A stretch of 32,000 nt of DNA from Candidatus Thorarchaeota archaeon. GTDB lineage: Archaea > Asgardarchaeota > Heimdallarchaeia > Hodarchaeales > Hodarchaeaceae. Location of the stretch: positions 480,001 to 512,000 of the forward strand of contig JBHLRO010000001.1 in assembly GCA_048882505.1 (NCBI GenBank), written 5' to 3'. A program made the position numbers and the translations under genes. This document shows positions 3,601-29,551 of the stretch, piece by piece (the stretch's first letter is position 1; the number at the start of each line of letters is the position of its first letter). Below the pieces are notes generated by a model. It made no database searches, was not told the origin of the DNA, and was given only the letters and a program-made list of their open reading frames with translations.

Positions 3601-6492
3601 ATCTTAGCGGGAGGAAAGTTAACACTCCAATTGACTCTTCCAGATACAATTGGGGAATGGACAATTAGAGCCGTGGTCACGACTCAGACAGGGCAAGGCA
3701 TTCTAGCAAAAACAACACTAAAAACATTCATTCCTTTCTTTGTGGATCTGGATAAACCTTCCCAAGTCCTTCAGGATGATATGTTCATTCTAAAGGGTGT
3801 GGTTTATAATTATTTGGATGAACTTGTCACTATTCAGGTAAAAATTGAAACAGCTAAGGGACTCCTTCTCTTAGGAAATGTAGATCAGCAATTGCGGCTT
3901 CCTGCAGGATTTATTGGTGCCATTAGCTGGACAACATTGGCACTGGAAACAGGAAACCAAAATGTCACTTTCTATGCTAGTACAAGGCTGATTAATCAGT
4001 CTCTATTCACTGATGCGATACGTAAGCCTGTGTTTGTAAACCCAAACGGAATTACCCAGGAGGTTCACGAAAGTGGATTTATATCGAACGGGGTGATTAT
4101 CAACTACACTCGGTATACTGAGAGGGTTCAAACAAGTGAGTTTTTAGAGCTCTCTTTGGGCTTAGGTTCCGTGGCATTAAACTCATGGGAACGCCTGATT
4201 GGCTATCCTTATGGTTGTACTGAGCAAACAATTTCTCGTTTAATACCTGACGCATTGGTATATCGATATCTTGACAGTACTGGAGAATTACAAAATGATA
4301 CTAAAGCCCTGCTTCGAGATATGATTGCCTCAGGTTTATCCCGTCTTTATAGCCAGCGACACCCCGACGGCGGATGGGGATGGTGGTCGAGTGACACATC
4401 ACGCGTCTATATGACGACCATCGTACTCCAAGGCCTCATAGAGATCAACCGGACTGGTATTTACACGGACTCGAATATTATCAAAGAAGCACTTACATTT
4501 ATCGTCAACCAACAAAATCAGGACGGCAGTTGGAATCAGGACTCTTGGGGTCATATTGACAAGAATGCTTTTACTGGTTTTGTGTTACGCGCAGTTCTCG
4601 CCTGGAAGAATCTTTTGAAAGACGATACGCCAATCAAAAAAGCGGTCGCCTACATAGAAACCAAGTGGACCAATCCTGCAAACCAATCTCCCTACCTTGC
4701 AGGTCTGTACTTGGACTCAATTCCGGGATCAGGGTACGGAACGCCAGGGATTTCCGCTTCTCTCATCGCCTACTTATACCAAGAAGCCGTACCTACATCA
4801 ACGGGATATTATTGGAGATATTCATCTGACGATAAGGTTATATGGAGAGCCCTAGGTGGGGATACAGAAATCACCGCCTTGGCATTAAAAGGTCTTGTAT
4901 TACATGATACCATGGTATCTATGCCTGTTGTTAGAGGTGCCCTCCATTGGTTACTAGAAAGACAGAGCTGGTATGGTTGGGGTAACACGGCTGATACAGC
5001 TGCAGCTATTTCCAGCATTATTGCTATCAGTGAGAGTGCTATCAGTTCAGATGCAGACACAGTTGCGAGCCTGATCATCAATGACGTCCCAATAAGGAAT
5101 TTAAGTCTCTCAATCAATAATTATTCCTCCTTCTATCTCGATATCGAATCCTATCTAATCAACGGGGTAAACACCATTCAGCTCGAAAAAGTCGCGGGAA
5201 GTGGGAATATAAGCTTTTATTTCCAAGCAATCCAAACCCTTAGAGCGTTACCAATAATCGATATCCCCCCAGAGTTTATCAGCGGTGTTGGAGCGATCGA
5301 TACAATAACAATTGATCTAAACCCATCATCTTCATATGTTTTAGCGACGCAAATCCAAATTTCTCCCCTTCCTGGGAGCAAGGTACAACTGACTCCGACT
5401 GTCCAGAACATCAAGCTACTTGCAGATCCGAACCAAGTTTTATTTACATTCCAAGCCCCAAATGAGGTAGGAAGTTATGAAATCCCAGGATTTGAAATTA
5501 AGTATCAGCTAACGAATCCGATCCAGTCTGTTCTGTCTCCAGGGATCATATCACGTTACTATGGTCCAATTCTTATTTCTGTGATCGAAAACTCGGAGTT
5601 CTTCCTACCTTCAGATCTTGGTCCAGCACCTCTTGTACATCGTTCGACAGGTTTTGACTCCAAGATTCAGGAAGACATTCAATCAGAGCTACTGCTAACA
5701 CGTTCATACTCAACAACAGGAAAAACCCGCCTCGGAGACTTGATTACCGTTACCCTAACGATTTCAAACACAAAAGCTCGGGAAAATTTCCTTATGTTGA
5801 AAGATTTTCTCCCTGTTGGATTCTCAATAGACGAGAGCACAATCCAACACCCACAGGTAGCATACACACGAACGGAGTCTGGGATTACGTTCTTTTTCCC
5901 GGTATTAGAGATGGGAGATACCATTGTTAAGTATGGATTAGTTGCTGACAATCCTCGTCAGTCTTTAGCTCCGCCAGCCGAACTATCATCTATGTATGAT
6001 GAATGGATTGTTAAGAGCAACTCGGCCGTTTTAGGGGCTAGCCGTATTCGAATTGATCCTGTCACCAACAGTATTTTGAGAGATCTCCAAAAGCCGATCC
6101 TTGAAGATTTATCAATTGCAGAGGTTTTACTAGAGTTTTCTCCAGCTGTTGCAATATCTGTGAAAGCTACTGACAATTGGAGGATTAGTAGTGTTCGAGT
6201 GTATGCGGGAAACTCTAACGAGGGTAAATGGATTGTTCTGGATTGCGAAGAGCAACCTGACTCCTGGTCTACTCTCACATCCAACTTAGAAGAAGGACAA
6301 ACCCAATTTTATGTTGAAATCATGGATGAGGCTGGCAATGTCTTGGTTACGGATGCTATATCCTATTATGTTGAGTTTAGGGATCTTGTGATACCTTTCC
6401 TCCCAATAATTGGGCTTTTGATCCTAGCCTTTCTGACAGGACTCGGTGCTTCGGCTTTTGTCAGACGTAAGACGAAAGGGAATTTAGGCTAA
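601..6492 (+). CDS. Alpha-2-macroglobulin/complement-family thioester protein (TEP), exported and C-terminally membrane-anchored
   Basis: The likely start is ATG 601 (the track starts at GTG 550), giving the signal peptide MKIRFISIMILFILIMGVFQSVNA. MG-domain motifs: IITTDKPIYTPGE, RYEKPAFRV, KYYFGKPV, FQPDKDVYKPKDTV. Post-bait motif VRDYLPENAYW, then LPDTIGEW. Thioester YPYGCTEQ (Cys codon 4216). TED helices QRHPDGGWGWW, DTEITALAL, WLLERQ...GNTADT. Receptor-binding-like domain ending PPAELSSMY. An Ig-like D..P...ATDN...DEAGN domain, a TM helix (LVIPFLPIIGLLILAFLTGLGASAFV) and a basic tail RRKTK. Confidence 0.93.
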   Translation: MKIRFISIMILFILIMGVFQSVNASQLSISESKYGNGIDDQKSSDSLDDRSFEVEIESQSLESLSRFDDPLSRQISPLVVNNASTNQKIVQSVQDDLVVNIDLEKNTIPSGTPLYFSIQATRGFLPAEGAEFLLEIIDGEYWGYYYWWAEEYYNYQDRVITTEQVTIGPDGEYQGMFLPPKDGIFTLVVRDLSSNVLQSRTFTVADIGIFWRVPWEYIIGEEHYSVAYVLNTTDFSPVTNVAVELSTITYEYVPDNADYEVNTDLVFTGVTDESGVVEISFIPSSSFSSGYFLANLSATYNGRSVYVSRELRQGDNRWWWGSDQGYNPYEFIITTDKPIYTPGESIQARILVWKNDYHKVTKKPVKETFTLRLLSPSQHILVQRELTTDTFGVATYSFPLDTDIELGKYTLEAKKGEIQSFQEIRVDRYEKPAFRVDLLLDRDYVPPGELITGTLSAKYYFGKPVVNGEIELAIDVITTLTGATDSKGEWRFEYRLPSGSYLEGRESIKLNTTVIDTVGREVKTSTEVQVSEYIYVWAYVNPWFPKANENITVYFGAFQQSEDYRFGWWQYVPLPDATVRLKLYSLSSFGTSYYFLTFQSETDDNGQGSVTFQISPSILRYYSNFRVTVEVDPGDGRKVSTDTYFSVNRNYLDITLSADTFSQGDDVEFLAEIINGITQNRIAGTIQIRIFDPDYDLIGSVTAELTSGARELKFSLSKKAPRGRYYIHTYVETRIKDNWWNWVYYSYQGTFEFSVGSIAQSVDLVTEKTEYSLKDQIKITGSVQGITNTPVMVQLVKRGIVLTEFIPKDSVASFTLDLSDVSALAPRFWAFAFVILSDGTILETYLEIKIDSSLKVMFQPDKDVYKPKDTVKLDINVFDAHNNPISTLAALSFVDSSVFGVEPDPETESSSFEDSQYWPSVYTVASWKNRQHFWWFWWYEEDVVFGGDVLRGVEPIAFGNTESADLSARSNLGTKITNLPTTSFDVRDYLPENAYWNPKAILAGGKLTLQLTLPDTIGEWTIRAVVTTQTGQGILAKTTLKTFIPFFVDLDKPSQVLQDDMFILKGVVYNYLDELVTIQVKIETAKGLLLLGNVDQQLRLPAGFIGAISWTTLALETGNQNVTFYASTRLINQSLFTDAIRKPVFVNPNGITQEVHESGFISNGVIINYTRYTERVQTSEFLELSLGLGSVALNSWERLIGYPYGCTEQTISRLIPDALVYRYLDSTGELQNDTKALLRDMIASGLSRLYSQRHPDGGWGWWSSDTSRVYMTTIVLQGLIEINRTGIYTDSNIIKEALTFIVNQQNQDGSWNQDSWGHIDKNAFTGFVLRAVLAWKNLLKDDTPIKKAVAYIETKWTNPANQSPYLAGLYLDSIPGSGYGTPGISASLIAYLYQEAVPTSTGYYWRYSSDDKVIWRALGGDTEITALALKGLVLHDTMVSMPVVRGALHWLLERQSWYGWGNTADTAAAISSIIAISESAISSDADTVASLIINDVPIRNLSLSINNYSSFYLDIESYLINGVNTIQLEKVAGSGNISFYFQAIQTLRALPIIDIPPEFISGVGAIDTITIDLNPSSSYVLATQIQISPLPGSKVQLTPTVQNIKLLADPNQVLFTFQAPNEVGSYEIPGFEIKYQLTNPIQSVLSPGIISRYYGPILISVIENSEFFLPSDLGPAPLVHRSTGFDSKIQEDIQSELLLTRSYSTTGKTRLGDLITVTLTISNTKARENFLMLKDFLPVGFSIDESTIQHPQVAYTRTESGITFFFPVLEMGDTIVKYGLVADNPRQSLAPPAELSSMYDEWIVKSNSAVLGASRIRIDPVTNSILRDLQKPILEDLSIAEVLLEFSPAVAISVKATDNWRISSVRVYAGNSNEGKWIVLDCEEQPDSWSTLTSNLEEGQTQFYVEIMDEAGNVLVTDAISYYVEFRDLVIPFLPIIGLLILAFLTGLGASAFVRRKTKGNLG

Positions 6493-15986: not shown

Positions 15987-16116
15987 ACAAGCAAAACAAG
16001 ACCAAAAATCTAATAGAAGTTGATTTAGTATAGAAAGTATGATGATTTCATTAGAAATAATGATAATTCTTCATACTTTCCTTTATATTTTTTGCTAATT
16101 TAAAAGAAGATGCCAA

Positions 16117-16905
16117 ATGCCTGAAAGAGGAATTATAATGAAAAATATAATAAATCCATCATTCTCATATGCCCTTTTCCTATTAATTGTTCTTAATCCC
16201 TTTATGATTAACTATGAAAACATTAGTGGTAATACACCAGTGTTATACTATGGGAGAACGGTAGAAGAGGGAGTAAACATTCCCCTGAATCTTAATGCCT
16301 TTAATGGATCCCAATCTGTGCTTGATGAGCTCAATCAATCAGACTCAGTCAATGTTACATGGATGACACTGAACGTTTCCTTTTCTCTAAATATGAGTAT
16401 TTGGAATCACGTTGAAATAGTTCATATTAATGCATCGGGATATTTTGGAAGGATCACCGCCTATGATAGTGAATTTAGAAATGTTTGGTATCTTTCAGAA
16501 ATTATAAACGTAACTAACGTCATTGTGTGGAAAGATAATGATCATTCAGGAGAATATTACTATCGAGAAGCCCTAAAATCGAATTCATTACCTAATATCT
16601 CTGGTTCATATGATCAAGAGAAGAATGAATTTGTTATATCAGAGTTTGATGAAAGTGAAAATATTTCTACACGTTTAATTGTTGATACACTAAGAGGTGT
16701 AACTAAAAAAATTGTCCTCTATGAATCTTCTGCATCGTACAAAGGTACCTTTAACTGTGATCGCATAGAAATATCTGTAGGTCTGTATGTGCCGCAAAAC
16801 GATGATGAGAACTTCTTACAGATCATATTTGTTTCGGGTTTTCTTATCGTGATATCGTTTGTTGGATTTCTTTATAAATATCGAAGGATGAGTCAGAACC
16901 AATAG
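16117..16905 (+). CDS. Exported, C-terminally membrane-anchored (probably N-glycosylated) protein
   Basis: N-terminal hydrophobic segment FSYALFLLIVLNPFMI (start may be ATG 16138). Many N-x-S/T sequons (NIS, NGS, NQS, NVT, NVS, NMS, NAS). C-terminal TM FLQIIFVSGFLIVISFVGFLY followed by KYRR. Confidence 0.78.
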   Translation: MPERGIIMKNIINPSFSYALFLLIVLNPFMINYENISGNTPVLYYGRTVEEGVNIPLNLNAFNGSQSVLDELNQSDSVNVTWMTLNVSFSLNMSIWNHVEIVHINASGYFGRITAYDSEFRNVWYLSEIINVTNVIVWKDNDHSGEYYYREALKSNSLPNISGSYDQEKNEFVISEFDESENISTRLIVDTLRGVTKKIVLYESSASYKGTFNCDRIEISVGLYVPQNDDENFLQIIFVSGFLIVISFVGFLYKYRRMSQNQ

Positions 16906-16912
16906 TAGACGA

Positions 16913-19714
16913 ATGACTTATCGAGGAAGGAATTTGTTTAACAAAATCCGTATTCTTCTTTTTCTTCTAATAGGACGGAAAAGAAAGTTATTTTTTACAA
17001 TTTTCTCTTGTACAGTATTTATTGTCAATTTTCAGGCCTTATTATTCTTTAATTTTACTAGTATCAATCCTTTCCAAACCTTTGTGAATGATCTCAGCGA
17101 TGACACGATAACTCTCTATCTGGGTTCTGATGAATTTGACAATACTACTTCTTTTACTGATATTATGAATGCTTACACATATTTTACAAAGAATCTACCT
17201 CAATCTATTCAAAACTATGATGTAAAAAAGACCATATATGCACCTTTTAATGTATTTAATCATCCTAATTTTACTGTGATTGACAAGAACTCTTCTAATT
17301 ATGGTGAGTTCGATAATAGTATTTTTACTTTGGAGAATAGTTTTAGAGATCTTCTTCATCAAATAAACAGTTCTGAAAACGGAAGAATCATAACAGGAAC
17401 AAATAAAATCGAAGGCATAATCTTTTCAGCAGAGCTGGAAAGCTCATCAGTTTATAAAACAGCCGAAATCCAGATTATTGACTACAAAGAAAACAATAGT
17501 AGAATTCTCACAACATTTACTTTCTTAGTGCTAAATCGTCTGCTTTTTGATAGTGCTAATTCAATTTCAAGTAATTTTCCTGAACTTGCTTATAATCCTA
17601 AAATTATCATACCCTTTAATCAATCGTACAAATTGGGTTGGTTTCGTGGTTATTTTTCAACTTTTATCACTTTGGAGCTACAAAAAAACGCCTTAACGAA
17701 TATCGTATTAAATCCTATCCTTAAGGTAAAGTATTTGAATTTTTTAACTGATTTTCATAAGTATTTAGCGAGTTATCAGTGGGAAGGTATCCATAACTTT
17801 CATATTGATAATCAGATTGTTACAATGAGTAAATTAGTGGACGATATATTAGTTATTTTCCTAATATTGCTAGCTTTGACATTGATACCCATAATTATTT
17901 CTATTCTGTTTTTGATTATATATTCTGAAAATATCCGAAATCATACCTTCAAAAAAGATTATTTGAAAAAACTATTGTTTCGAGGATATTCCAGAAACTT
18001 TATTCTCTTTTATTATTCATTTGAATCAATTGTTATCGTATCTTCTTCAATTTTTCTAAGTTTTATCCTCTCATTTGCAGTTTTTGAGACCATTATAATC
18101 CAACTCCCTGACATAATTGAACCAGACGCGATATTGGGATTCATTACTGTAGTAATGAATCCTGTAAATAATGTTGTTTTCCTTTTTTTCCTATTTTTTA
18201 CTCTTATCTTATTGAATGGAAGGGGTTTATTTCTAAATATACATGATCAAGCTTTAAAAACTGAAGAATATACAGATCCACAGATAACTGAATACCAACT
18301 AAATAAAATCCCTATCCTTGTATTTAGTATACTATTGATCTTATTTATTAGCTTGACGGTTATTTTTTCTTCAGGGAAGGAGATACCTCTATTTATTGGA
18401 CTCCTAATCTTCTTATTTGGGATTTGGTTATGGGTAGTTTGTGGACTGTTTTTTCTGAAAAAAATTTATCGATTTTTTTCCGAAAGATATGAATTAGTTA
18501 TTGCTTTGAATCTGTTTCATAAGAATTATTTCTCCCAAAGAAAGTTAACGGAAGCTTTATTCTGGATATTATTGATCTCTTTTACAGTTCCTTCGTTAAT
18601 GGATACCTTTGATTATAATCTTCAGAGAGATGCCTATTATAAAACAGGAGCTGATATTCAACTACAAATTGACCCTTTCATTAACCATGAAGAACTCTTT
18701 TTAAAACTAAATGAGGTTCCCGAGATAACGAACTTTGATCTTGTTTATCAAACGAGCCTTACATTTGGTACTGAATTTACCTCAGTTCCTAATATGTATG
18801 AGATAATAGGACTTGATCCAAGAACTTTCTTTTCAAGAAAAAGTTTTGAACCAAATTTTCTCGAAGGAATTTTGGTTGATGAGGCAATAGAAGAACTGTC
18901 ACGTCAGGGAACGGTTCTTATTCCCAATAAGGATATAATGAGACTAAATTCTGATATAGAAGAGAATTTCTCGATTTTTGGTTATATAGACTATCCTACT
19001 AAAAGTACCAAAGAATATGATCTAAAAATTATAGGGGGTGTGAAACATTGGCCTTCAAAAACCCTTAAACAGCTTACTGATTATCAAATTCAACTTTTCA
19101 CATCAATGCAAACTTTATTTGCCCTTATCGATGATTGGAACGTATCTGTGACACAAATGGTATTAATTGATCTTGTCAATTCAAGTCTCTCTCAAGAATC
19201 ATACAATTATCTCCTCAATAATCTCTCCAGTAGTGTCTTACTAAATGTGAACGTACAATTAGAGAATAAAACCTCTTCATATACATATTCGAATCTACAA
19301 GGTCAAATATTCGAAATTTTTTCAATTATTGTTTCTAATGCTACGATATTAGTTATAGTACCGATTTCATCCATTTTTTTGTTCTATTTGTCCTATAGAA
19401 TGGAGAACAATGTTGGTATACTGGAATCTATTGGATTTAAGAAGAAAAATATTGGTTTAGCTTTTACAGGATACTTTTTTATGCTGTTTGTTATTGGTCT
19501 AACAGGTGTTGGAATACTAGGAATATTTTTACTGGAAGTAATTTCCATTTCAATCACGACTCCGTCCGGCCTCGAGCTAATTCCAAAAATACGAATTGGG
19601 TTTTTGGTTATTATATTTTTCATTGAAGGTTTGGTTCTTTTTTTAATTGCCTTAATTTTCAATAAGCACTACCTAAGAGAGCAACCAGCCAACTTAATAA
19701 TGAGGAGGGATTAG
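16913..19714 (+). CDS. ABC transporter permease, FtsX/MacB family (duplicated architecture)
   Basis: Two large extracytoplasmic loops, each followed by TM bundles with the FtsX-type motifs KKLLFRGYSR and VGILESIGFKK; YYKTGADIQL. The gene is tightly coupled to an ABC ATPase. Confidence 0.82.
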   Translation: MTYRGRNLFNKIRILLFLLIGRKRKLFFTIFSCTVFIVNFQALLFFNFTSINPFQTFVNDLSDDTITLYLGSDEFDNTTSFTDIMNAYTYFTKNLPQSIQNYDVKKTIYAPFNVFNHPNFTVIDKNSSNYGEFDNSIFTLENSFRDLLHQINSSENGRIITGTNKIEGIIFSAELESSSVYKTAEIQIIDYKENNSRILTTFTFLVLNRLLFDSANSISSNFPELAYNPKIIIPFNQSYKLGWFRGYFSTFITLELQKNALTNIVLNPILKVKYLNFLTDFHKYLASYQWEGIHNFHIDNQIVTMSKLVDDILVIFLILLALTLIPIIISILFLIIYSENIRNHTFKKDYLKKLLFRGYSRNFILFYYSFESIVIVSSSIFLSFILSFAVFETIIIQLPDIIEPDAILGFITVVMNPVNNVVFLFFLFFTLILLNGRGLFLNIHDQALKTEEYTDPQITEYQLNKIPILVFSILLILFISLTVIFSSGKEIPLFIGLLIFLFGIWLWVVCGLFFLKKIYRFFSERYELVIALNLFHKNYFSQRKLTEALFWILLISFTVPSLMDTFDYNLQRDAYYKTGADIQLQIDPFINHEELFLKLNEVPEITNFDLVYQTSLTFGTEFTSVPNMYEIIGLDPRTFFSRKSFEPNFLEGILVDEAIEELSRQGTVLIPNKDIMRLNSDIEENFSIFGYIDYPTKSTKEYDLKIIGGVKHWPSKTLKQLTDYQIQLFTSMQTLFALIDDWNVSVTQMVLIDLVNSSLSQESYNYLLNNLSSSVLLNVNVQLENKTSSYTYSNLQGQIFEIFSIIVSNATILVIVPISSIFLFYLSYRMENNVGILESIGFKKKNIGLAFTGYFFMLFVIGLTGVGILGIFLLEVISISITTPSGLELIPKIRIGFLVIIFFIEGLVLFLIALIFNKHYLREQPANLIMRRD

Positions 19715-19719
19715 ATTCA

Positions 19720-20430
19720 ATGGCTAAAGTCATTGCAGAGTTGGAATGTAGTGAATTAGTCAAGATTTTCACCACCGAAAATTCTAATGTTTCAAGAGCT
19801 GTATTAAAAGGGATTGATCTTAAATGTAAAACTGGAGAATTAATATGCATCATTGGGCCAAGCGGTTCTGGAAAAACTACCTTACTTCAAATAATTTCAG
19901 GGTTTTTAAAACCCGATGCTGGATTTGTAAAACACGACACACAAATTATCAACAACTTTAGTCGAAAGAAACTTGAGGAATATTGGAGAGAAACTATTAC
20001 CTTTATTTATCAAGATCCTTATGATAACGTCTTTCCACATCTCCCTATCAAAAGAAATATCCTTATAGCATGTAATCTGAGCAAAAATAGGAGGTTTTTG
20101 AACGATGAATTTATTTCAAGGGTATTACTGGAGGTGGATTTGAAAAAGCATCTATCCACACCTAGTAATCGCTTATCTGGTGGAGAAATACAGAAATTGG
20201 CTTTTGCGATTGCAATTATTCGAAATTCTCAGCTGATCTTACTTGACGAACCTACAGGAGAAATTGATGCTGAAGCAAGCCAGAACATCTTTCAAATACT
20301 CACCTCTTTATGTCACAGAAAAAAAATGATTGGCATTTTAGTGACTCATGATAAACTTGCTTTGAAATATGCAACAAGAGCCTTTTCTCTAACAGAAGGA
20401 AGGCTGAATGAAATAAAATTGAATAAATAA
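19720..20430 (+). CDS. ABC transporter ATP-binding protein (LolD/MacB-like)
   Basis: Walker A GPSGSGKTT, Q-loop FIYQ, signature LSGGE, Walker B LILLDEP, H-loop VTHD; starts 5 nt after the permease stop. Confidence 0.95.
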   Translation: MAKVIAELECSELVKIFTTENSNVSRAVLKGIDLKCKTGELICIIGPSGSGKTTLLQIISGFLKPDAGFVKHDTQIINNFSRKKLEEYWRETITFIYQDPYDNVFPHLPIKRNILIACNLSKNRRFLNDEFISRVLLEVDLKKHLSTPSNRLSGGEIQKLAFAIAIIRNSQLILLDEPTGEIDAEASQNIFQILTSLCHRKKMIGILVTHDKLALKYATRAFSLTEGRLNEIKLNK

Positions 20431-20522
20431 ATTGGTGAATCTAATGAAGTCGACTCTCTTTTCCAAAATTGCCATTTTTTTTCTATTCACATCGGGGATT
20501 CCTTTTTATTTTTGCCTGGGCA

Positions 20523-20600
20523 TCATTTTTTACTGATTTTTCTTCCTGACGTATTTTTTAACAGTACACACGAACGACAGTAATTTTGACACCTGGTCAT
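20523..20600 (-). CDS. Possible 25-aa Cys-rich micro-ORF (MTRCQNYCRSCVLLKNTSGRKISKK)
   Basis: Not in the ORF track. ATG at 20600 is preceded by AAAGGAGGA with 5-nt spacing; TGA at 20525-20523; CxxxCxxC pattern. Confidence 0.3.
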   Translation of the reverse strand: MTRCQNYCRSCVLLKNTSGRKISKK

Positions 20601-20866
20601 CCTGATCCTCCTTTAGGTTTCTTACCAATTGATTTCGTGATGAAATGAATAAAATCATTTTGTGAGAAGATGCTATTTCCTATAAGAAAATATTCAAGCA
20701 GTCACCTACCAAAAACGACTCAACAAGCGACTAATTAACGGCAAAAACAGTGAATGTTTCATTAAGAACTAAAAAATGATTCCTTTGCTATGATTTCCTG
20801 AAAGTCTTTGATTTTTTTCTCTAATCTCTTTTATTCATCAGAAAACGTACATCTGATCTAGAATTC

Positions 20867-21616
20867 CTATTTTTCCTCAGATACCACAGATCTGATCTTC
20901 TTTAATTCGGACAACATCTGTTTTCGAAGAATCGCAATACCGGTCGCTCTGTCTTCCTCTCCGGCAGATCGCTTGGAGCTTCTAAGAGGACTAACTGGGG
21001 ACGGAGGGGTTGGTTTGGTCACGCCAGGAAAAGAAATTTTCGGCACTGAAGGACTTAAATGTTGTTTTTCTGGCATGGGAGGTTTTGAAAGGCTCGATGC
21101 CGTTGACGAAGGAGTAGGCGATGAAGTGGTTGGCTTGGAGATAGAGGCAGTTTCTGGAAACGAAAAACTAATTTCGGGCTTAGAAGTAACAGGGGTGGCA
21201 GGAGGGGAGGGGGAGATTTTGGCTTCAGGAGCTGCGATTTTTGGAATAGAAGCACTGGGAATCGGCTCTGGAACTGGAGCAGGCTGTATTGGTTCAGATG
21301 GTGGTACCTCCCGTTCATGAGGTGACAGTTCTGTTCTCCCTCCAAAAAGCCTAGTCACTGAATCGAACTTCGGAATATCTAGGTCTCGAATCTGCTCAAA
21401 TTGAAACTCTCGCGAAACTCGTTCAAGTGTCGTAGAAGTAATATGACCTTCAAGAAGGCTTTCCTTTAACATATGTTCAAAACGGAGAGCGTTAACTTGA
21501 AATGCGTGTGCCACATGAGCATACTCTTCAAGAGGGAGGCCTCGAAGTTTGAGAGAGGTGTCGAATCGAAAATCTCGTTGCGTCTTGTCTGTCTTTTTCT
21601 TAAACAGCCTTACCAA
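20867..21616 (-). CDS. Protein with a helical N-terminal domain, a long Pro/Ser/Thr-rich disordered linker and a C-terminal amphipathic helix ending LKKI
   Basis: TTG start with gagga upstream. Residues ~100-215 are P/S/T-rich; the C-terminus is RATGIAILRKQMLSELKKIRSVVSEEK. Confidence 0.8.
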   Translation of the reverse strand: MVRLFKKKTDKTQRDFRFDTSLKLRGLPLEEYAHVAHAFQVNALRFEHMLKESLLEGHITSTTLERVSREFQFEQIRDLDIPKFDSVTRLFGGRTELSPHEREVPPSEPIQPAPVPEPIPSASIPKIAAPEAKISPSPPATPVTSKPEISFSFPETASISKPTTSSPTPSSTASSLSKPPMPEKQHLSPSVPKISFPGVTKPTPPSPVSPLRSSKRSAGEEDRATGIAILRKQMLSELKKIRSVVSEEK

Positions 21617-23805: not shown

Positions 23806-24744
23806 ATGGAATCTGGAATGGAAAGATCAGTGGAATACGAGGCACGAATCGTTTGTGATGCCGATTGCCGAGTATGTGTAGCAAAGAGAGAGAAGGATGT
23901 AAGTACCGAAGGAGGAGATATACTCCATTTTTGTCGTTCGTGTCAAGAAAAATATCTCTGTCCCGTAATCCTACCAACCACCTCGCGAGGGAAGGAATAT
24001 CAGTGTCCAAAATGCTCTGAGAAATTGACGGAAATGACCCTAGAGCGCGCTCAACAAATAGGCCTGGCCTTTGGAGTCCAGCTCACCCGTATCAAACCTG
24101 AACGACGCCCAGTCGAAGAAATTAAACGAACATGGTTTTATTCGCCATCAGACCAAGGAGTCCTTTCTGAAAACTATGTCAAAGACCTATTGAATTACAA
24201 GGGTTTGGGGGTTTCCCAACTTACGGATTTGATGTACCACGCAGATTTTTCGTACCGTCCAGAGGCTAACCTTGAAAAACGACGTATGTTATGGGACATA
24301 TTTGCTAAAAAACCACAGATTATTAGATCCCTTCATAACAGCTTGATTACTCGCTCTGAACATCGTCGTGTCGACCTAGTTATTCGGACGCTAATGCAGC
24401 ACGAGACGTTAGGATGTACCTATATTAGTTCTATTATCCCCAAGCATCTTGCAGGAACTATTGATCTCATTGGGATAGATCGGAAAACTGGGGGACTTGT
24501 CTGGATTGTTGTTCACGAAGATCGAATTGATGAGCAATTGATCAATACCCTCTTCAACGAAATCTTGAGCCTTCCTCCTCTCGAATTTATGGGTATTGAA
24601 CGTTTAATCTTACTCACCAGAAAATGGATATGGATGGGAGCCGAAATTGCCAGACGGCAAGGTAAGGTCTTAACTAGATGGAAACAACTGACGATGGAAC
24701 TTTGGGAGGAAAATCCGAATTTTACATTGCAAAAGCTTGCGTAG
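23806..24744 (+). CDS. Cys-rich Zn-finger (RING-like) protein with a C-terminal degenerate PD-(D/E)xK-like domain
   Basis: Eight Cys plus one His in the first 70 aa (CDADCRVC, HFCRSC..KYLC, CPKC). The C-terminal GTIDLIGIDRKTGGLVWIVVHE...IERLILLT resembles a restriction-endonuclease fold. TATA-like ttaaaaa at 23774. Confidence 0.7.
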   Translation: MESGMERSVEYEARIVCDADCRVCVAKREKDVSTEGGDILHFCRSCQEKYLCPVILPTTSRGKEYQCPKCSEKLTEMTLERAQQIGLAFGVQLTRIKPERRPVEEIKRTWFYSPSDQGVLSENYVKDLLNYKGLGVSQLTDLMYHADFSYRPEANLEKRRMLWDIFAKKPQIIRSLHNSLITRSEHRRVDLVIRTLMQHETLGCTYISSIIPKHLAGTIDLIGIDRKTGGLVWIVVHEDRIDEQLINTLFNEILSLPPLEFMGIERLILLTRKWIWMGAEIARRQGKVLTRWKQLTMELWEENPNFTLQKLA

Positions 24745-24906
24745 AGGGAGTCATCAGGTACCAATAGAATATTCAAAAATGCATTCCCAACGAAAAAGGG
24801 ATCACTGCAGAAAAATTAAAATTTTAAGTATAGTTGCCCATAGGACGGAAAAATCACAGACTCAAATAGCAAATGCACTAAATTTACTAATGGAGTAAAT
24901 ATTTAA

Positions 24907-24930
24907 AGAAAAGGGTAGAACAGAAAAAAA
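24907..24930 (-). terminator. Oligo-T terminator of the Rab-like GTPase gene
   Basis: The minus strand reads tttttttctgttctacccttttct about 30 nt after the stop. Confidence 0.55.
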
Positions 24931-24959
24931 CTAGGGAGGTGATTCTCGAAATCTTTTGG

Positions 24960-25526
24960 CTAGGTCTGCTGCTGTTGTCGCTCCACATAATCCAGATATA
25001 CATTCCCAAGCATATCAAAGGCTGCAGACACATTTAAACCTGTTTTAGCAGAAGTGGGCATAAATTTCACTGGAAAACCCGATTCCATAGTCTTTTTTGA
25101 AAGATTTACTGAAAATTCCTCTGCCTGACCATCGGTAACGTGGTTGGGAAATTGTTCCCGCAAGTCCACTTTGTTCCCCAGAAGTACGATCGGAATCATA
25201 CCCTTTCCGTTATGTTGGAAAATTTCATCAAGCCAAGCTTCTAAATTTGTGAATGTATCAGGCCGAGTAACATCGAACACCAGAAGGGCACCCAGGCATC
25301 CATAATAATAGACGCTCCGGACTGTCCCAAATCGGGGTTGACCAGCCAAGTCCCATATCTGAAATTTGATGGATTTATCCCTGATTGTAGCTTCTTTGAG
25401 TGCAAAATCGGCTCCTATGGTCATCATATAATTGCTGGAGAATCCTTTCCCAAGGTAGCGCTCTCGGAGGGCGGTTTTGCCGACTGCGCCATCACCTGCG
25501 AGTACTATCTTCATTAAGAATGACAT
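24960..25526 (-). CDS. Rab-like small GTPase (Asgard type, no prenylation motif)
   Basis: G1 GDGAVGKT, G2 T in MTIGADF, G3 WDLAGQ, G4 NKVD, G5 SAK. RabF-like motifs IGADF, KFQIW, RFGTV, YYYGC, LVFDVT. The protein ends ERQQQQT. Confidence 0.95.
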   Translation of the reverse strand: MSFLMKIVLAGDGAVGKTALRERYLGKGFSSNYMMTIGADFALKEATIRDKSIKFQIWDLAGQPRFGTVRSVYYYGCLGALLVFDVTRPDTFTNLEAWLDEIFQHNGKGMIPIVLLGNKVDLREQFPNHVTDGQAEEFSVNLSKKTMESGFPVKFMPTSAKTGLNVSAAFDMLGNVYLDYVERQQQQT

Positions 25527-25688
25527 GGTTATACCTCATTAGAGTATCGCGTGAAATGTATTAATTGGATGGTTCAGAGGGATAGTTCCCCATTCTAATT
25601 GACTGCTGGGGAGTATTGTATTGATTAATCATATTCTTTAATGTCGATATTTAAAGCTGATTATTTGTTTGAAATAAATATTCCACAG

Positions 25689-26387
25689 CTAAACAGCGAT
25701 TTGCTCGATGGAGTTTACAACACGGGCACCCGAAAGACTTGGAATCGTGGCAGTACCCATTAATAGAAAGATGTAGCGGTCTTTTGCGAACTTTTTATAA
25801 CCTTTGGTAAGGTAAGAGATAGTATCTACTTCAGATTCATCCATAGCAAACCAGATGGCCACGCGTTTCTTCTTGAACCCCCCTTTCTCCGCGACCAGAT
25901 CAACGGGAGTCGCTTCGCTTACGATCGCCCGAACATTCTCTTGAACCTTGTACCCAGCCTTAGAGAATCTTGATCGCAGCGCAGCGGTCAGCAAGTAAGC
26001 TTTTATCTCCCCCGCTTTTCGTAAGTATTTTTCTCCTTCAAATTGTTGACCCAAACGATCAAATGCTCCTGCCATCTTCCGAAACACACGGAAAAGAAGT
26101 TCGTTAGGGTGGACAGCGGTGGGGGGAAGCTCGAGAGTTTCTAATTGTGTCATCGCCGCGACTAGGTGGCTCAAGGCTTCTTGATCCTGCCGTTCAAGAA
26201 TCTTTGTGTCCGCTAAACCTTCTTGAATCTCAGATTCGAGTAATAGGCGATCAGTCTGGCTGAGCGTATCAGGAGGTTGAGACTGAAGAGCTGCGAGAGC
26301 ATTGGTAAGGATCGTATGTGCTTGCTCAGTCTGCTTCGCGACTATGAGTTTCTTTGCTTCTTTTAGGGACAATTCAAAATCCATCAT
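25689..26387 (-). CDS. TPR-like helical protein fused to a degenerate PD-(D/E)xK (Mrr/RecB-like) domain
   Basis: Helical repeats such as RVFRKMAGAFDRLGQQFEGEKYLRKA. The C-terminal LRSRFSKAGYKVQENV...VDLVAEKGG...RVAIWFA has WFA where ExK is expected. Confidence 0.68.
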   Translation of the reverse strand: MMDFELSLKEAKKLIVAKQTEQAHTILTNALAALQSQPPDTLSQTDRLLLESEIQEGLADTKILERQDQEALSHLVAAMTQLETLELPPTAVHPNELLFRVFRKMAGAFDRLGQQFEGEKYLRKAGEIKAYLLTAALRSRFSKAGYKVQENVRAIVSEATPVDLVAEKGGFKKKRVAIWFAMDESEVDTISYLTKGYKKFAKDRYIFLLMGTATIPSLSGARVVNSIEQIAV

Positions 26388-26594
26388 AATTCCTCTCGGG
26401 TTATAGCGAAACCTTATCCCATTTTCGATAAATTTCTGCTATTAGGGGAATCCTAAATACTCCATTATAATCTTCTTCCGTGTAGCTGTAGGTATCGAAA
26501 ACAGATCTTGTTAACAATCGGAACTGGTAATTCCTTGGCCGCAAGAATCCAAAGTTTTACGCATTTTATATCTGTTTGATGAAAGATGGTTTCC

Positions 26595-27320
26595 TCATTC
26601 ATGGGTAACAAGGCGCGAAATTTGCGTAAGATATGTTTCGATACTATGTTTAGGTTTAAGGGCAACCAAAAGGATTCTCTCTGCATCCATGGTGTAGAGG
26701 AGGAGTGTATTAGTTCTTCCAGTCACTGCAATACTTTGTGCAGTCCCACCCATGACTTTTGTAGGTAAACTTAAAGCTGAGGAGACCGCAGCCAATTGAG
26801 CTGGGTCAACATCAAGACCAACCAAAAACTCGCTCAGTGGAGCCCCGACAGTTGTGAAGATAAGGATTGCTTCAGCTTCAGGAATAGAACGTTTTAGGCG
26901 CTCAATAAGGCTGTCTTCTATGTCGAGGGTCTTTATGATCGCGTTGATATGATCAGCCGCTTCTCGGAGCTGAGTTCGGAGCTCCGCCATTGGTGGTCGT
27001 TCTTCAAATGATGATTTAGGGACAATAATTCTTGTAATAAGGATTGTGTCTCTTGCAAGGGTTGCCACAACGATCGCATCCTCTTGAAACACAATATAAT
27101 CTAGTGTATGATCATTTAGATTCTCATCCATGAATTTTTCAGATATGGCTAATGCACTGGTAACGGCAGCGGGCAGAACATAAAGTTCATCCCCCGCAGT
27201 TGACCTCCTGGTTCGTTCAACGAGCGGAGACCCGTCTAGTGCGGCCACAATGCATTGATGGACGTGCTGATTGCTAAACAATTTATCTAGGATTTTCTCG
27301 ATTTCTGGATTATCGATCAA
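26595..27320 (-). CDS. Tandem (double) Roadblock/LC7/MglB-like domain protein
   Basis: Domain 1: CIVAALDGSPLV...LPAAVTSALAISEKF...LDYIVFQ. Domain 2: EAILIFTTVGAPL...QLAAVSSAL...QSIAVTG...LLLYTMDAERILLV. Each has the roadblock strand-strand-helix-strands layout. The RBS gaggtg precedes a TTG start. Confidence 0.8.
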   Translation of the reverse strand: MIDNPEIEKILDKLFSNQHVHQCIVAALDGSPLVERTRRSTAGDELYVLPAAVTSALAISEKFMDENLNDHTLDYIVFQEDAIVVATLARDTILITRIIVPKSSFEERPPMAELRTQLREAADHINAIIKTLDIEDSLIERLKRSIPEAEAILIFTTVGAPLSEFLVGLDVDPAQLAAVSSALSLPTKVMGGTAQSIAVTGRTNTLLLYTMDAERILLVALKPKHSIETYLTQISRLVTHE

Positions 27321-27529: not shown

Positions 27530-28612
27530 CTAAGATGAGAATAATTCGTTTAGAAATTCCGGTTTATAATTTCCACTTCTATGGATTCCTAATGCTTCGT
27601 CTGTCTTCTTCATACATTGTCCAACATTTGTTTCCCTAGCTAAAAGGGCGCGGATGGCATCAATGGTCTCGGGGATCGGAATAGATTCCATATGAACATC
27701 GTAAATCAGATACAGATTTTTTTGAGAATCCAAATTCAACGTTTCTTCCCAAATAAAGACCTCTGGGCGATCATATCTAGGTCTACCCAAATCACGAAAA
27801 TACTCTACTAATTGCGCCGAATCGTACAATCCCTGACGGCCGGGCTCAATGAGAATACGAGGCATCTGTTGGAATAGGCTAATTACTTGCTCACGGTTTA
27901 GTTCGGATGCCATAGTCACTTTCAGCATATGAACATGGGAGAGGGTCCAGCTCCCAGCAATTGCTAATGAATAAATCCTGTCTTTCATTTGGGGCATGAC
28001 AGTTACAAGGTCGGGACCATGATGAGAAACTCCAAGGACGGGTGTTACAGCATTGATTGGACCACGGTTCGTTCGAGCTGGATCGCCGGCTCGCCTAGCA
28101 AGGGCGACAAAAGCCTCTGAAACTCCAAATTTGTGGGCTAAAGAGGCGATAATTCGTGTTAACGCGGTCGTATTACACGAGACAACCCGAGTTTCGTCTA
28201 CTCCTATGTTTTCGGCATAATTACCAAAAGTCGAAAACGATCGGTTGGTTAGCGAATGGCTTTCACCCCCGTGCACAATATACTTGACTCCATGCTTTTG
28301 GTAAAGAGGAATATTGTTACGGGGAACTCCTGAGGGAGTACAATCAACCATAATATCTACATTCTTAACCAGATCTTCGAGAAATCCCACGATTTCAAAT
28401 CCTGCATCCCGCATCTTAGGAGCGAAATCGGATACACTGCAATATATTGGATATCCACGTTCGACCGCGATTCGGAGACGAACGTCAGAGATAATATCGG
28501 CTATTCCGGTTAATTCCATATCTTTCTGAGCATAAACTGCATCTGCAACCCTTTTCCCAATAATACCATATCCAACAACCCCTACCTTGGCTTTGTCATT
28601 TGCAGGACTCAC
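27530..28612 (-). CDS. gap: Glyceraldehyde-3-phosphate dehydrogenase, archaeal type II (phosphorylating)
   Basis: KVGVVGYGIIGKRVADAV, VDCTP, catalytic RVVSCNTT, RRAGDP...GPINA...SHHGPD, DLGRPR.D, HMES..IPETIDAIRA. The likely start is GTG 28612 after gagga (the track starts at 28654). Confidence 0.95.
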   Translation of the reverse strand: MSPANDKAKVGVVGYGIIGKRVADAVYAQKDMELTGIADIISDVRLRIAVERGYPIYCSVSDFAPKMRDAGFEIVGFLEDLVKNVDIMVDCTPSGVPRNNIPLYQKHGVKYIVHGGESHSLTNRSFSTFGNYAENIGVDETRVVSCNTTALTRIIASLAHKFGVSEAFVALARRAGDPARTNRGPINAVTPVLGVSHHGPDLVTVMPQMKDRIYSLAIAGSWTLSHVHMLKVTMASELNREQVISLFQQMPRILIEPGRQGLYDSAQLVEYFRDLGRPRYDRPEVFIWEETLNLDSQKNLYLIYDVHMESIPIPETIDAIRALLARETNVGQCMKKTDEALGIHRSGNYKPEFLNELFSS

Positions 28613-28622
28613 AACGCTTTCC

Positions 28623-29060
28623 TCAGAATAAATTTGATGATTTCCTCTCTTCAATAAGTCCCTGAAGGAGTTTTTTCCCTTCCTCGGTCAGATAGAACAT
28701 CCGAATGACGGTGGGATCAGCGATTTCAGTAATACTTTGCCCCAAATAATCCAGGGTTTTCTTTACCATAGCGACGTCATGCCCAACAAGTCCTATGGCT
28801 TCCAACCACCCTAATGAAAGCAATGTTTTCTCAATTGAAAGCTTAGATTTTTCTTTGATTTTTTTGTATGTGACGCCGCGAATCCCGGTAGCCCCATGAT
28901 GGCCTCGATAAAATTCCTCAGGATTTTCCAGTGCAAGGATCACTTTCTTCTGATCGATATTCAGGTCTTTGATTGATGTCACGCTTGCCAACCACCGAAA
29001 TAGGCTATTTTTGTGAAGGTTTTCCTGCAATAAATAAGATGGAAAGTCAGGTACATCCAT
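28623..29060 (-). CDS. Winged-helix-like protein, paralog A
   Basis: YKKIKEKSKLSIEKTLLSLGWLEAIGLV...FYLTEEGKKLL fits HTH, wing and YxLTxxG. It ends 10 nt before the gap start. Confidence 0.72.
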   Translation of the reverse strand: MDVPDFPSYLLQENLHKNSLFRWLASVTSIKDLNIDQKKVILALENPEEFYRGHHGATGIRGVTYKKIKEKSKLSIEKTLLSLGWLEAIGLVGHDVAMVKKTLDYLGQSITEIADPTVIRMFYLTEEGKKLLQGLIEERKSSNLF

Positions 29061-29179: not shown

Positions 29180-29551
29180 TCAGCTAGAGCTATTAAGGTT
29201 CGACCCAATCGCCATACCTTTTATCATCTCCCTTCCCAAACTAGAAAGCCTAAATATCCTTACGATTTTTTGACCTGCGATCTCAACATTACTTCTGCCA
29301 TGATAATTGATAGTTTGTCTCTGGACGGCAGGTATATGCTCGATCAAACCTTTCGCTTCCAGTCCACCAAGAGAGAGTAACGTTTTTTCGAATGAAAGCT
29401 GGGATTTTTCCATGATTTTCTTATACGGCAGTCCAATGAAAATTCCATTCCCACGCTCTTCGGAAACCAAATATTCAGACGGATCAAAATAATTGAGAGC
29501 AAGGATTTCCAGAATCGTGCGCATATCATTACTTAAATTCATGTACGACAC
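29180..29551 (-). CDS. Winged-helix-like protein, paralog B
   Basis: YKKIMEKSQLSFEKTLLSLGGLEAKGLI...FRLSSLGREMI; about 37/73 identical to paralog A by hand ungapped alignment. Confidence 0.72.
   Translation of the reverse strand: MSYMNLSNDMRTILEILALNYFDPSEYLVSEERGNGIFIGLPYKKIMEKSQLSFEKTLLSLGGLEAKGLIEHIPAVQRQTINYHGRSNVEIAGQKIVRIFRLSSLGREMIKGMAIGSNLNSSS

Follow-up and report, generated by a model that had tools for sequence, protein, structure and literature searches.

A Rab-like GTPase with candidate TPR and roadblock partners in a conserved gene neighbourhood of Hodarchaeales archaea

A 32,000-nucleotide stretch of DNA (the window) from a Hodarchaeales (Heimdallarchaeia) genome, whose assembly spans 4.3 Mb and is 94.6% complete, encodes a Rab-like small GTPase (P0002) beside a tetratricopeptide repeat (TPR) protein that ends in an apparently inactive nuclease-like domain (P0003) and a tandem roadblock protein (P0004). 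We show the domain identities of these proteins, the conservation of their neighbourhood outside the genus and their phyletic co-occurrence. Furthermore, binding of the TPR protein to the switch surface of the GTPase is predicted. On balance we favour the reading that GTPase, roadblock regulator and TPR effector form a switch module, with a logic like that of MglA/MglB/SgmX.

Gene neighbourhood and phyletic distribution

Because of two loci found outside the genus, the conserved core of the neighbourhood is the GTPase with the TPR protein (three lineages) and the roadblock protein (two lineages). In G022, a genome from another family of the order, genes for a roadblock (273 aa), a TPR (239 aa) and a GTPase (192 aa) protein follow each other in the same orientation, with gaps of 60 and 93 bp and unrelated flanks; the encoded proteins are 67/34/30% identical to those described here. 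On the metagenomic contig L047, a TPR gene is followed after 68 bp by a co-oriented GTPase gene, the product of which is 64% identical to P0002 and hence closer to it than the best P0002 paralogue within its own genome (58%). Every locus in which both occur has the TPR and roadblock genes side by side on the same strand. No Zn-finger or glyceraldehyde-3-phosphate dehydrogenase (GAPDH) gene was found near the G022 locus, and the Zn-finger gene is also absent from the L047 locus.

The TPR protein is present in all 21 species of the genus and in both genomes of the second family, while it was found in 0/17 genomes from other families of the class. The tandem roadblock orthogroup occurs as a single copy in 20/21 genus genomes and in G022, and in 0/57 genomes from other families of the class. 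GTPase orthologues (≥64% identity), the TPR protein and the tandem roadblock all occur in the two families of the order. In three other families, sampled with one genome each, the best P0002 match is ≤53%. As far as searched, the module appears to be restricted to this one order, Hodarchaeales.

Within the genus, a 12-gene block running from a Pro-rich gene to an RtcB-like gene is collinear in every species, and so is the unrelated region around P0005, a long paralogue of P0003. Hence, within-genus synteny is uninformative on function. The synteny comparison across Asgard genomes suggested by the original prediction, made from the DNA sequence of the window, yielded the trio in G022 and the TPR-GTPase pair on L047, but no informative gene order within the genus and no retention of the Zn-finger gene outside it.

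The genes and domains concerned are located in the window as follows, gene coordinates being those of the Table-11 listing of open reading frames (ORFs):

24960-25526, minus strand: P0002, 188 aa, Rab-like GTPase
25689-26387, minus strand: P0003, 232 aa, TPR and restriction endonuclease (REase)-like protein
25959-26387, minus strand: TPR domain of six helices, P0003 residues 1-143, from the AlphaFold2 (AF2) model and structure matches
25692-25958, minus strand: REase-like domain, P0003 residues 144-232, from AF2 topology and Atlas matches
26595-27320, minus strand: P0004, 241 aa, tandem roadblock protein
26997-27320, minus strand: first roadblock/LC7 domain, P0004 residues 1-108, from a Robl_LC7 match
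26643-26912, minus strand: second roadblock-like domain, P0004 residues ~137-226, from hhalign
23806-24744, plus strand: P0001, 312 aa, Zn/NucS-like protein

All four ORFs proposed originally are present in this listing. The intergenic gaps, which had been put at 160-210 bp, measure 162, 207 and 209 bp, with a further 215 bp in the convergent, stop-to-stop spacer between P0001 and P0002. An oligo-T run lies past the P0002 stop codon on the minus strand. The start codon of P0004 is TTG, as opposed to ATG in most orthologues.

Predicted complex of the GTPase and the TPR protein

Multimer prediction, which the original prediction had put forward as a check, was run for the GTPase-TPR pair using an alignment of each protein with GTP and Mg present. 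The interaction prediction score from aligned errors (ipSAE) was 0.80, 0.84 and 0.79 in three runs, compared to 0.00 for the best of three controls. In calibration, 58 of 80 solved complexes and 2 of 110 mismatched pairs attained the mark adopted for this score; these counts are only rough here because custom alignments were used and GTP and Mg were present. Agreement between the three runs is at least 94% of contacts, with a predicted local distance difference test (pLDDT) score of at least 85 for the partner.

On the GTPase side, the interface consists of I37, G38, F41, L43, K54, Q56, W58, F66, T68, V69, S71-Y73, Y75 and G76, and thus extends from the last part of switch I over the interswitch strands to switch II. 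Among these, F41, W58 and Y73 correspond to the Rab hydrophobic triad read by effectors. On the partner side, the interface is located wholly in the TPR domain (residues 39, 44, 69-86 and 109-120), with the nuclease-like domain uninvolved. The TPR residues at the interface are more conserved than the remaining TPR domain, with a mean entropy of 0.55 vs 1.14 bits (Mann-Whitney p = 2.4e-4). It had been proposed that repurposed nuclease folds act as effectors or adaptors of a Rab switch; P0003 is indeed predicted on the switch surface, but by way of its TPR domain and not of its nuclease-like domain.

The assignment of P0002 as a Rab-like GTPase, made already in the original prediction, is borne out by its sequence matches. 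P0002 matches Pfam Ras with E = 6e-43 (146.6 bits, cut-off 21.6 bits), and Rab/Ypt/Sec4 proteins make up the best 60 of 714 PDB matches. The closest solved relative is a Thorarchaeota Rab (7ezb, E 2e-34), followed by Rab7, Rab8, Rab2, Rab11, Ypt7 and Sec4. The nucleotide-binding motifs are intact (G1 GDGAVGKT, switch-I T36, G3 DLAGQ with the catalytic Q63, G4 NKVD and G5 SAK), and G1-G5 are invariant across a 16-sequence GTPase alignment. The segments IGADF, KFQIWD and YY.G resemble RabF1, F2 and F4. The C-terminus (...VERQQQQT) contains no Cys, and the orthologues are likewise without a C-terminal Cys prenylation motif; P0002 is for this reason classed as Rab-like and not as a prenylated Rab. 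Its identity is 87-93% across most of the genus, compared to 52-67% for its neighbours. The genome contains 51 Ras-family and 12 roadblock matches in total.

Two observations concern the surroundings of GTPase orthologues elsewhere. On contig L047 (L047:1196-2676), the GTPase gene is followed after 30 bp by a gene for an Rce1-like membrane protein (CAAX protease/CPBP family). A link through CaaX processing was considered and dropped, as a terminal Cys motif is missing from both GTPases. In the sister-family genome G023 (C456; L051:1591-2076 and 2295-2693), the orthologous GTPase gene is followed ~220 bp on by a gene for a 132-aa Mrr_cat-like protein of a D-W-K-R type, which has three copies in the genome of the window (L042, L043 and L045). 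This REase-fold neighbour may be a coincidence.

Domain composition of P0003, P0004 and P0001

The AF2 model of P0003 was built with 25 homologues (pLDDT 90.8, predicted template modelling score 0.85). It displays helices over residues 4-143, the last of which is a long helix (115-143), followed by beta(147-152)-beta(162-168)-beta(174-181)-alpha(184-193)-beta(203-208)-beta(221-224). The helical part comprises three TPRs: residues 1-133 match many TPR structures with Z of 15-17 (VIA), and Foldseek gave a match to 2hr2 (E 2.8e-4). Neither Pfam nor NCBIfam provided a match to P0003, the Pfam TPR models remaining below threshold. The alpha-beta-beta-beta-alpha-beta order of the C-terminal domain is that of the REase core. 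A shape search of the ESM Atlas returned Mrr_cat/NA-iREase1 models with a template modelling (TM) score of 0.57 (query 88-232) and DUF4143 with TM 0.69 (81-231), normalised by target, together with Mrr/NERD models. The named language-model neighbours of residues 128-232 are all PD-(D/E)xK families (0.85-0.89), which we treat as a lead. The solved-structure searches used the whole of P0003 and the TPR domain filled the matches, so that the REase-like fold rests on the AF2 topology, the Atlas matches and the language-model features. By sequence, a profile of the C-terminal domain gave chance-level matches to PDB sequences, no Mrr_cat (PF04471) match to P0003 was seen at E up to 5, and hhalign against the Mrr_cat-like proteins of this genome gave a probability of 0.4%.

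D163 is invariant in the P0003 family. By hairpin register, W179 and A181 occupy the ExK positions in 25/25 sequences, and ExK is found there in no family member. The notion of a TPR protein carrying a catalytically dead PD-(D/E)xK-like domain is thus supported, by the model for the fold and by these replacements for the loss of activity. The beta2-beta3 hairpin is basic and conserved (K168, K173 and R175). An exhaustive profile search of 1.84 billion representatives found only 39 clusters with this domain, which is always C-terminal and usually placed behind TPRs. The family occurs as proteins of ~230 aa (short TPR), 460-670 aa (long TPR, as in P0005) and ~110 aa (stand-alone). Given that only 39 clusters were found and no Pfam model matches, the domain as modelled is a small, undescribed inactive REase-fold family lacking a Pfam model. 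It resembles the REase-fold domains NA-iREase1 (PF22722), Mrr_cat (PF04471), DUF4143 and the Rpb5 N-terminal domain in its core fold, with (D/E)xK lost in P0003; unlike these, it has no Pfam match and forms a family of its own.

Two further proteins of this genome carry related folds. P0005 (655 aa; L046:6598-8565, plus strand, equal to G000:C12:70597-72564) combines a long TPR region with a disordered linker and a C-terminal domain of the same inactive REase-like kind. In all genus members its gene lies 2.6 kb from another Ras-family GTPase gene (L046:11127-11711 here), an arrangement seen to be collinear in 11 congeners. This proximity was rejected as a sign of a general link, as adenylate kinase, ACT and glycosyltransferase family 2 (GT2) genes lie in between and the whole region is collinear. 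A 182-aa protein (L044:1459-2004, plus strand, equal to G000:C16 ~4280-4825) has a C half resembling Rpo5/RpoH and an N half matching Mrr_cat (29.5 bits). This would be a two-domain architecture like that of eukaryotic Rpb5, with a REase-fold 'jaw'.

P0004 had been proposed to be a double roadblock, and the sequence comparisons confirm a single-chain protein of this kind. The N half matches Robl_LC7 (PF03259) with E 1.7e-4 and 21.7 bits, slightly below the 23-bit cut-off; the same model is matched in 18/19 orthologues, with a best E of 2.9e-7. Pfam gave no match for the C half. It aligns with 11 roadblock proteins of this genome by hhalign (probability 90%, E 1.8e-6, 89 columns), and the G022 orthologue shows a weak Robl_LC7 match at residues 151-200. 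By language-model features, the C half lies nearest to Asgard roadblock proteins of ~240 aa and, as no more than a lead, to MAPKK1_Int (LAMTOR3). The two halves are only weakly related to each other (hhalign probability 20%; a 14-residue match by BLASTP), and the P0004 profile gave chance-level Cas9 matches among PDB sequences. Elsewhere in this genome, roadblock and GTPase genes cluster as roadblock-GTPase-roadblock (G000:C18:14132-16191) and as a GTPase followed by two roadblock genes (G000:C2:271222-273791).

P0001, which converges on the GTPase gene here, contains two further features:

23839-24060, plus strand: eight-Cys zinc-binding region (C17, C21, C24, C43, C46, C52, C67 and C70), from Cys conservation
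24364-24726, plus strand: NucS-like PD-(D/E)xK-fold domain, residues 187-307, from a VIA structure match

The eight Cys, spaced C-x3-C-x2-C...C-x2-C-x5-C...C-x2-C without His, are kept in 24-25 of 25 sequences. The RING-like character ascribed to this region is not supported: Pfam zinc-ribbon matches are sub-threshold, and zf-C3HC4_3 reaches only E = 0.32 (11.3 bits, cut-off 27 bits). A feature search pointed to small archaeal zinc proteins (≤0.85). The AF2 model of P0001 is of moderate quality (pLDDT 70.5 overall, ~70-85 in the NucS-like domain). Its NucS-like domain matches NucS 2vld_B with Z 9.2 (106 residues aligned, root-mean-square deviation 3.2) and AF1548 with Z 8.8 (VIA). Nearly all of the 50 chains listed for it are PD-(D/E)xK folds, and Foldseek and the Atlas also indicate NucS/EndoMS. 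D220 and E238 are each invariant (25/25), while position 240 is K in 11 sequences, R in 10 (including this genome) and L/M/S in 4; the equivalence to NucS D160/E174/K176 is inferred from hairpin register. Hence, of the proposed pseudo-nuclease, the fold is upheld and the deadness is not, given the fully conserved D220 and E238 and a K/R at position 240 in 21/25. P0001 is possibly an active or metal-binding nuclease-fold protein.

The NucS/EndoMS nuclease domain (2vld, 5gke) is the best structural match of the P0001 C-terminal domain, which shows a D...E-x-K/R pattern. Unlike NucS, P0001 has no NucS N-terminal domain, PCNA-binding tail or sequence-level match, and bears the eight-Cys zinc domain at its N-terminus instead; its Lys position is Arg in this genome and L/M/S in 4/25. 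By hhalign, the nuclease-like domains of P0001 and P0003 show no detectable sequence relation (probability 0.6%), and nothing was found between that of P0001 and the Mrr_cat-like proteins of this genome. In all genus loci the Zn-finger gene stands next to the others; in 15 of them it immediately precedes the GTPase gene in the same orientation, with gaps of ~220-570 bp. The P0001 family profile has no match in G022 or G023 (85% and 80% complete). Its inclusion in the module, as originally proposed, thus finds no linkage beyond the genus-wide collinearity and no counterpart in the sister family, and most likely this Zn-finger/NucS-like gene is unrelated to the module beside which it lies.

The locus is flanked on one side by myo-inositol-1-phosphate synthase (MIPS) and acylphosphatase genes, and on the opposite side by a GAPDH-type dehydrogenase gene, two winged helix-turn-helix (wHTH) genes, a nitroreductase gene and the RtcB-like gene. 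The GAPDH-type gene (27530-28654) overlaps the first wHTH gene (28623-29060) by 32 bp. The wHTH genes (28623-29060 and 29180-29551) are tandem paralogues with ~40% mutual identity, and the pair is kept genus-wide. Neither tRNA nor Rfam features were found in the window. Further away, an AT-rich stretch at 16000-21000 (GC 0.29-0.35 vs 0.41-0.45 around it) holds the genes of a 933-aa protein and of an ATP-binding cassette (ABC) transporter.

Proposed mechanism, alternatives and precedents

In the mechanism that we propose, the GTPase would cycle between GTP and GDP states, making use of its intact motifs and catalytic Gln. P0003 would bind switch I, the interswitch and switch II through its conserved TPR face, touching F41, W58 and Y73. 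Its C-terminal nuclease-like domain would be left free, and we infer by analogy that it may serve as an output or anchor module, with nucleic acid, acidic lipid or protein as candidate targets. The tandem roadblock would act as a built-in pseudo-dimer and offer a platform to the GTPase, of either the GTPase-activating protein (GAP) or the guanine nucleotide exchange factor (GEF) type. By analogy, P0004 most likely plays the part of an MglB dimer or one of Ragulator/Rag type; this platform role is suggested by the likeness to MglB and Ragulator and by the other roadblock-GTPase clusters of the genome. A bolder version, in which the TPR effector reads the GTP state through the hydrophobic-triad surface known from eukaryotic Rab effectors, the basic hairpin tethers it to nucleic acid or an acidic membrane and the roadblock protein is the GAP or GEF, is put forward only tentatively, as we consider it doubtful in full.

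Several observations weigh against the switch module. The three co-oriented minus-strand genes described originally are seen here and in the nearest relative, G016, but these are the only such cases in the genus: in 17/18 congeneric loci the GTPase gene is on the strand opposite the TPR and roadblock genes, the convergent GTPase/TPR loci being found among L022-L037 and L040. No inverted repeats that could account for an inversion were found flanking the GTPase gene here. With the GTPase gene inverted in 17/18 loci and gaps of 162-207 bp at this locus, co-transcription is not the rule. On L047, the roadblock gene is not directly upstream, and the contig ends 425 bp upstream of the TPR gene. The TPR gene lies apart from the GTPase gene in G023, where the orthologous GTPase (65%) is encoded on a separate short contig, and on contig L048. 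Regarding the predicted complex, its score is the confidence of the model itself, and the test of interface conservation depends in part on the alignment the model was given. Many solved structures have a helical partner on the Rab switch surface, and a memory effect is possible.

Among the alternatives, the TPR/nuclease-like protein could be a regulator of the GTPase (a GAP, a GEF, akin to a guanine nucleotide dissociation inhibitor, or a co-GAP with the roadblock protein) and not a downstream effector. The predicted interface spans both switch regions, which regulators use too, the TPR gene sits next to the roadblock gene in the same orientation at all loci having both, and Myxococcus offers examples of bipartite roadblock GAP complexes (PMC9481161). 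Set against this, the GTPase retains its own catalytic Q63, and a conserved C-terminal domain set apart from the TPRs would suit an adaptor with an output end. We judge a regulatory role of P0003 unlikely. Somewhat less probable again is that gene order was merely inherited, the four proteins being independent and the predicted complex a false positive. Such a view would agree with the variable orientation of the GTPase gene and with the collinearity of both the 12-gene block and the unrelated P0005 region, which renders genus synteny free of signal. It would also agree with Asgard GTPase genes being generally outside operons with roadblock genes, as described for MK-D1 by Tran et al. 2024 (PMC10933270), a rarity that makes Asgard GTPase-regulator pairs hard to infer from gene order. 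It does not agree with the persistence of the trio in a second family, where the flanks differ and the gaps are tight, and of the pair in a third lineage, nor with a complex score of 0.80 vs 0.00 for controls on a conserved surface.

We give little credence to the full version of the original prediction, with all four genes in one module and both nuclease-fold proteins serving as dead GTPase adaptors. The Zn-finger gene does adjoin the others in all genus loci, upstream and co-oriented in 15, and the C-terminal domain of P0001 has a NucS-like fold. Nevertheless, P0001 was not found in G022 or G023 by family profile and is absent from the G022 and L047 loci, its active or metal-binding site may persist (D220/E238 invariant, position 240 K/R in 21/25), and its nuclease-like domain shows no sequence relation to that of P0003. 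Least probable is a conflict or defence system coupling the GTPase to nuclease-fold sensors or effectors, in the manner of McrBC-like or NACHT/iREase systems. The shape matches do include NA-iREase1 (NACHT-associated inactive REase) and DUF4143, and the neighbouring P0001 is NucS-like with possible catalytic residues. The genes are, however, single-copy and occupy a fixed locus among housekeeping genes (MIPS, acylphosphatase and GAPDH) in all 21 genus species, the GTPase is ~90% conserved, and mobile-element, repeat or RNA features were not found, in a search that did not extend to the padloc library.

For the favoured module of GTPase, roadblock regulator and TPR effector, the combination of a GTPase, a roadblock GAP and a TPR effector has a precedent in Myxococcus MglA/MglB/SgmX (PMC7519303, PMC7668184). 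The M. xanthus system (also PMC9481161) similarly consists of a Ras-superfamily GTPase, a two-domain roadblock unit per GTPase and a TPR effector, which in Myxococcus binds the GTP form. Unlike MglA, the GTPase described here is Rab-like with a catalytic Gln; unlike MglB, a single chain carries both roadblock domains; and unlike SgmX, the TPR protein is short (three repeats), ends in an inactive REase-like domain and is known here from sequence and models. By analogy, the roadblock pair may also be likened to Ragulator-Rag (LAMTOR2/3 and the Rag C-terminal roadblocks) as a small-GTPase platform, although the GTPase here is not Rag-like and has no fused roadblock, the platform is a single polypeptide and lysosome-type anchoring parts are lacking. 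The Asgard Rab-like/roadblock sets (PMC10933270; 7ezb) include the closest solved relative of the GTPase and likewise have expanded GTPase and roadblock families; in contrast to the MK-D1 GTPases, a specific GTPase here keeps specific neighbours across families. A literature search for an Asgard Rab with a TPR effector and for an inactive REase joined to TPRs found no description of the trio or of the domain family.

Asgard genomes carry dozens of eukaryote-like small GTPases, almost none of which can be assigned a partner. This locus gives one Rab-like GTPase two candidate partners that are supported by neighbourhood across families, one of them with a predicted interface on the Rab effector surface that is clearly separated from controls. 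In addition, the locus brings to light an undescribed family of C-terminal domains with an inactive REase fold and no Pfam model. With three small proteins, each predicted to be soluble, the hypothesis is directly testable by recombinant means. If the bolder version is true, an Asgard Rab-like GTPase would for the first time have been assigned a complete set of regulator, switch and effector, and Rab-style effector recognition would be older than eukaryotes, Hodarchaeales being the archaea placed closest to them.

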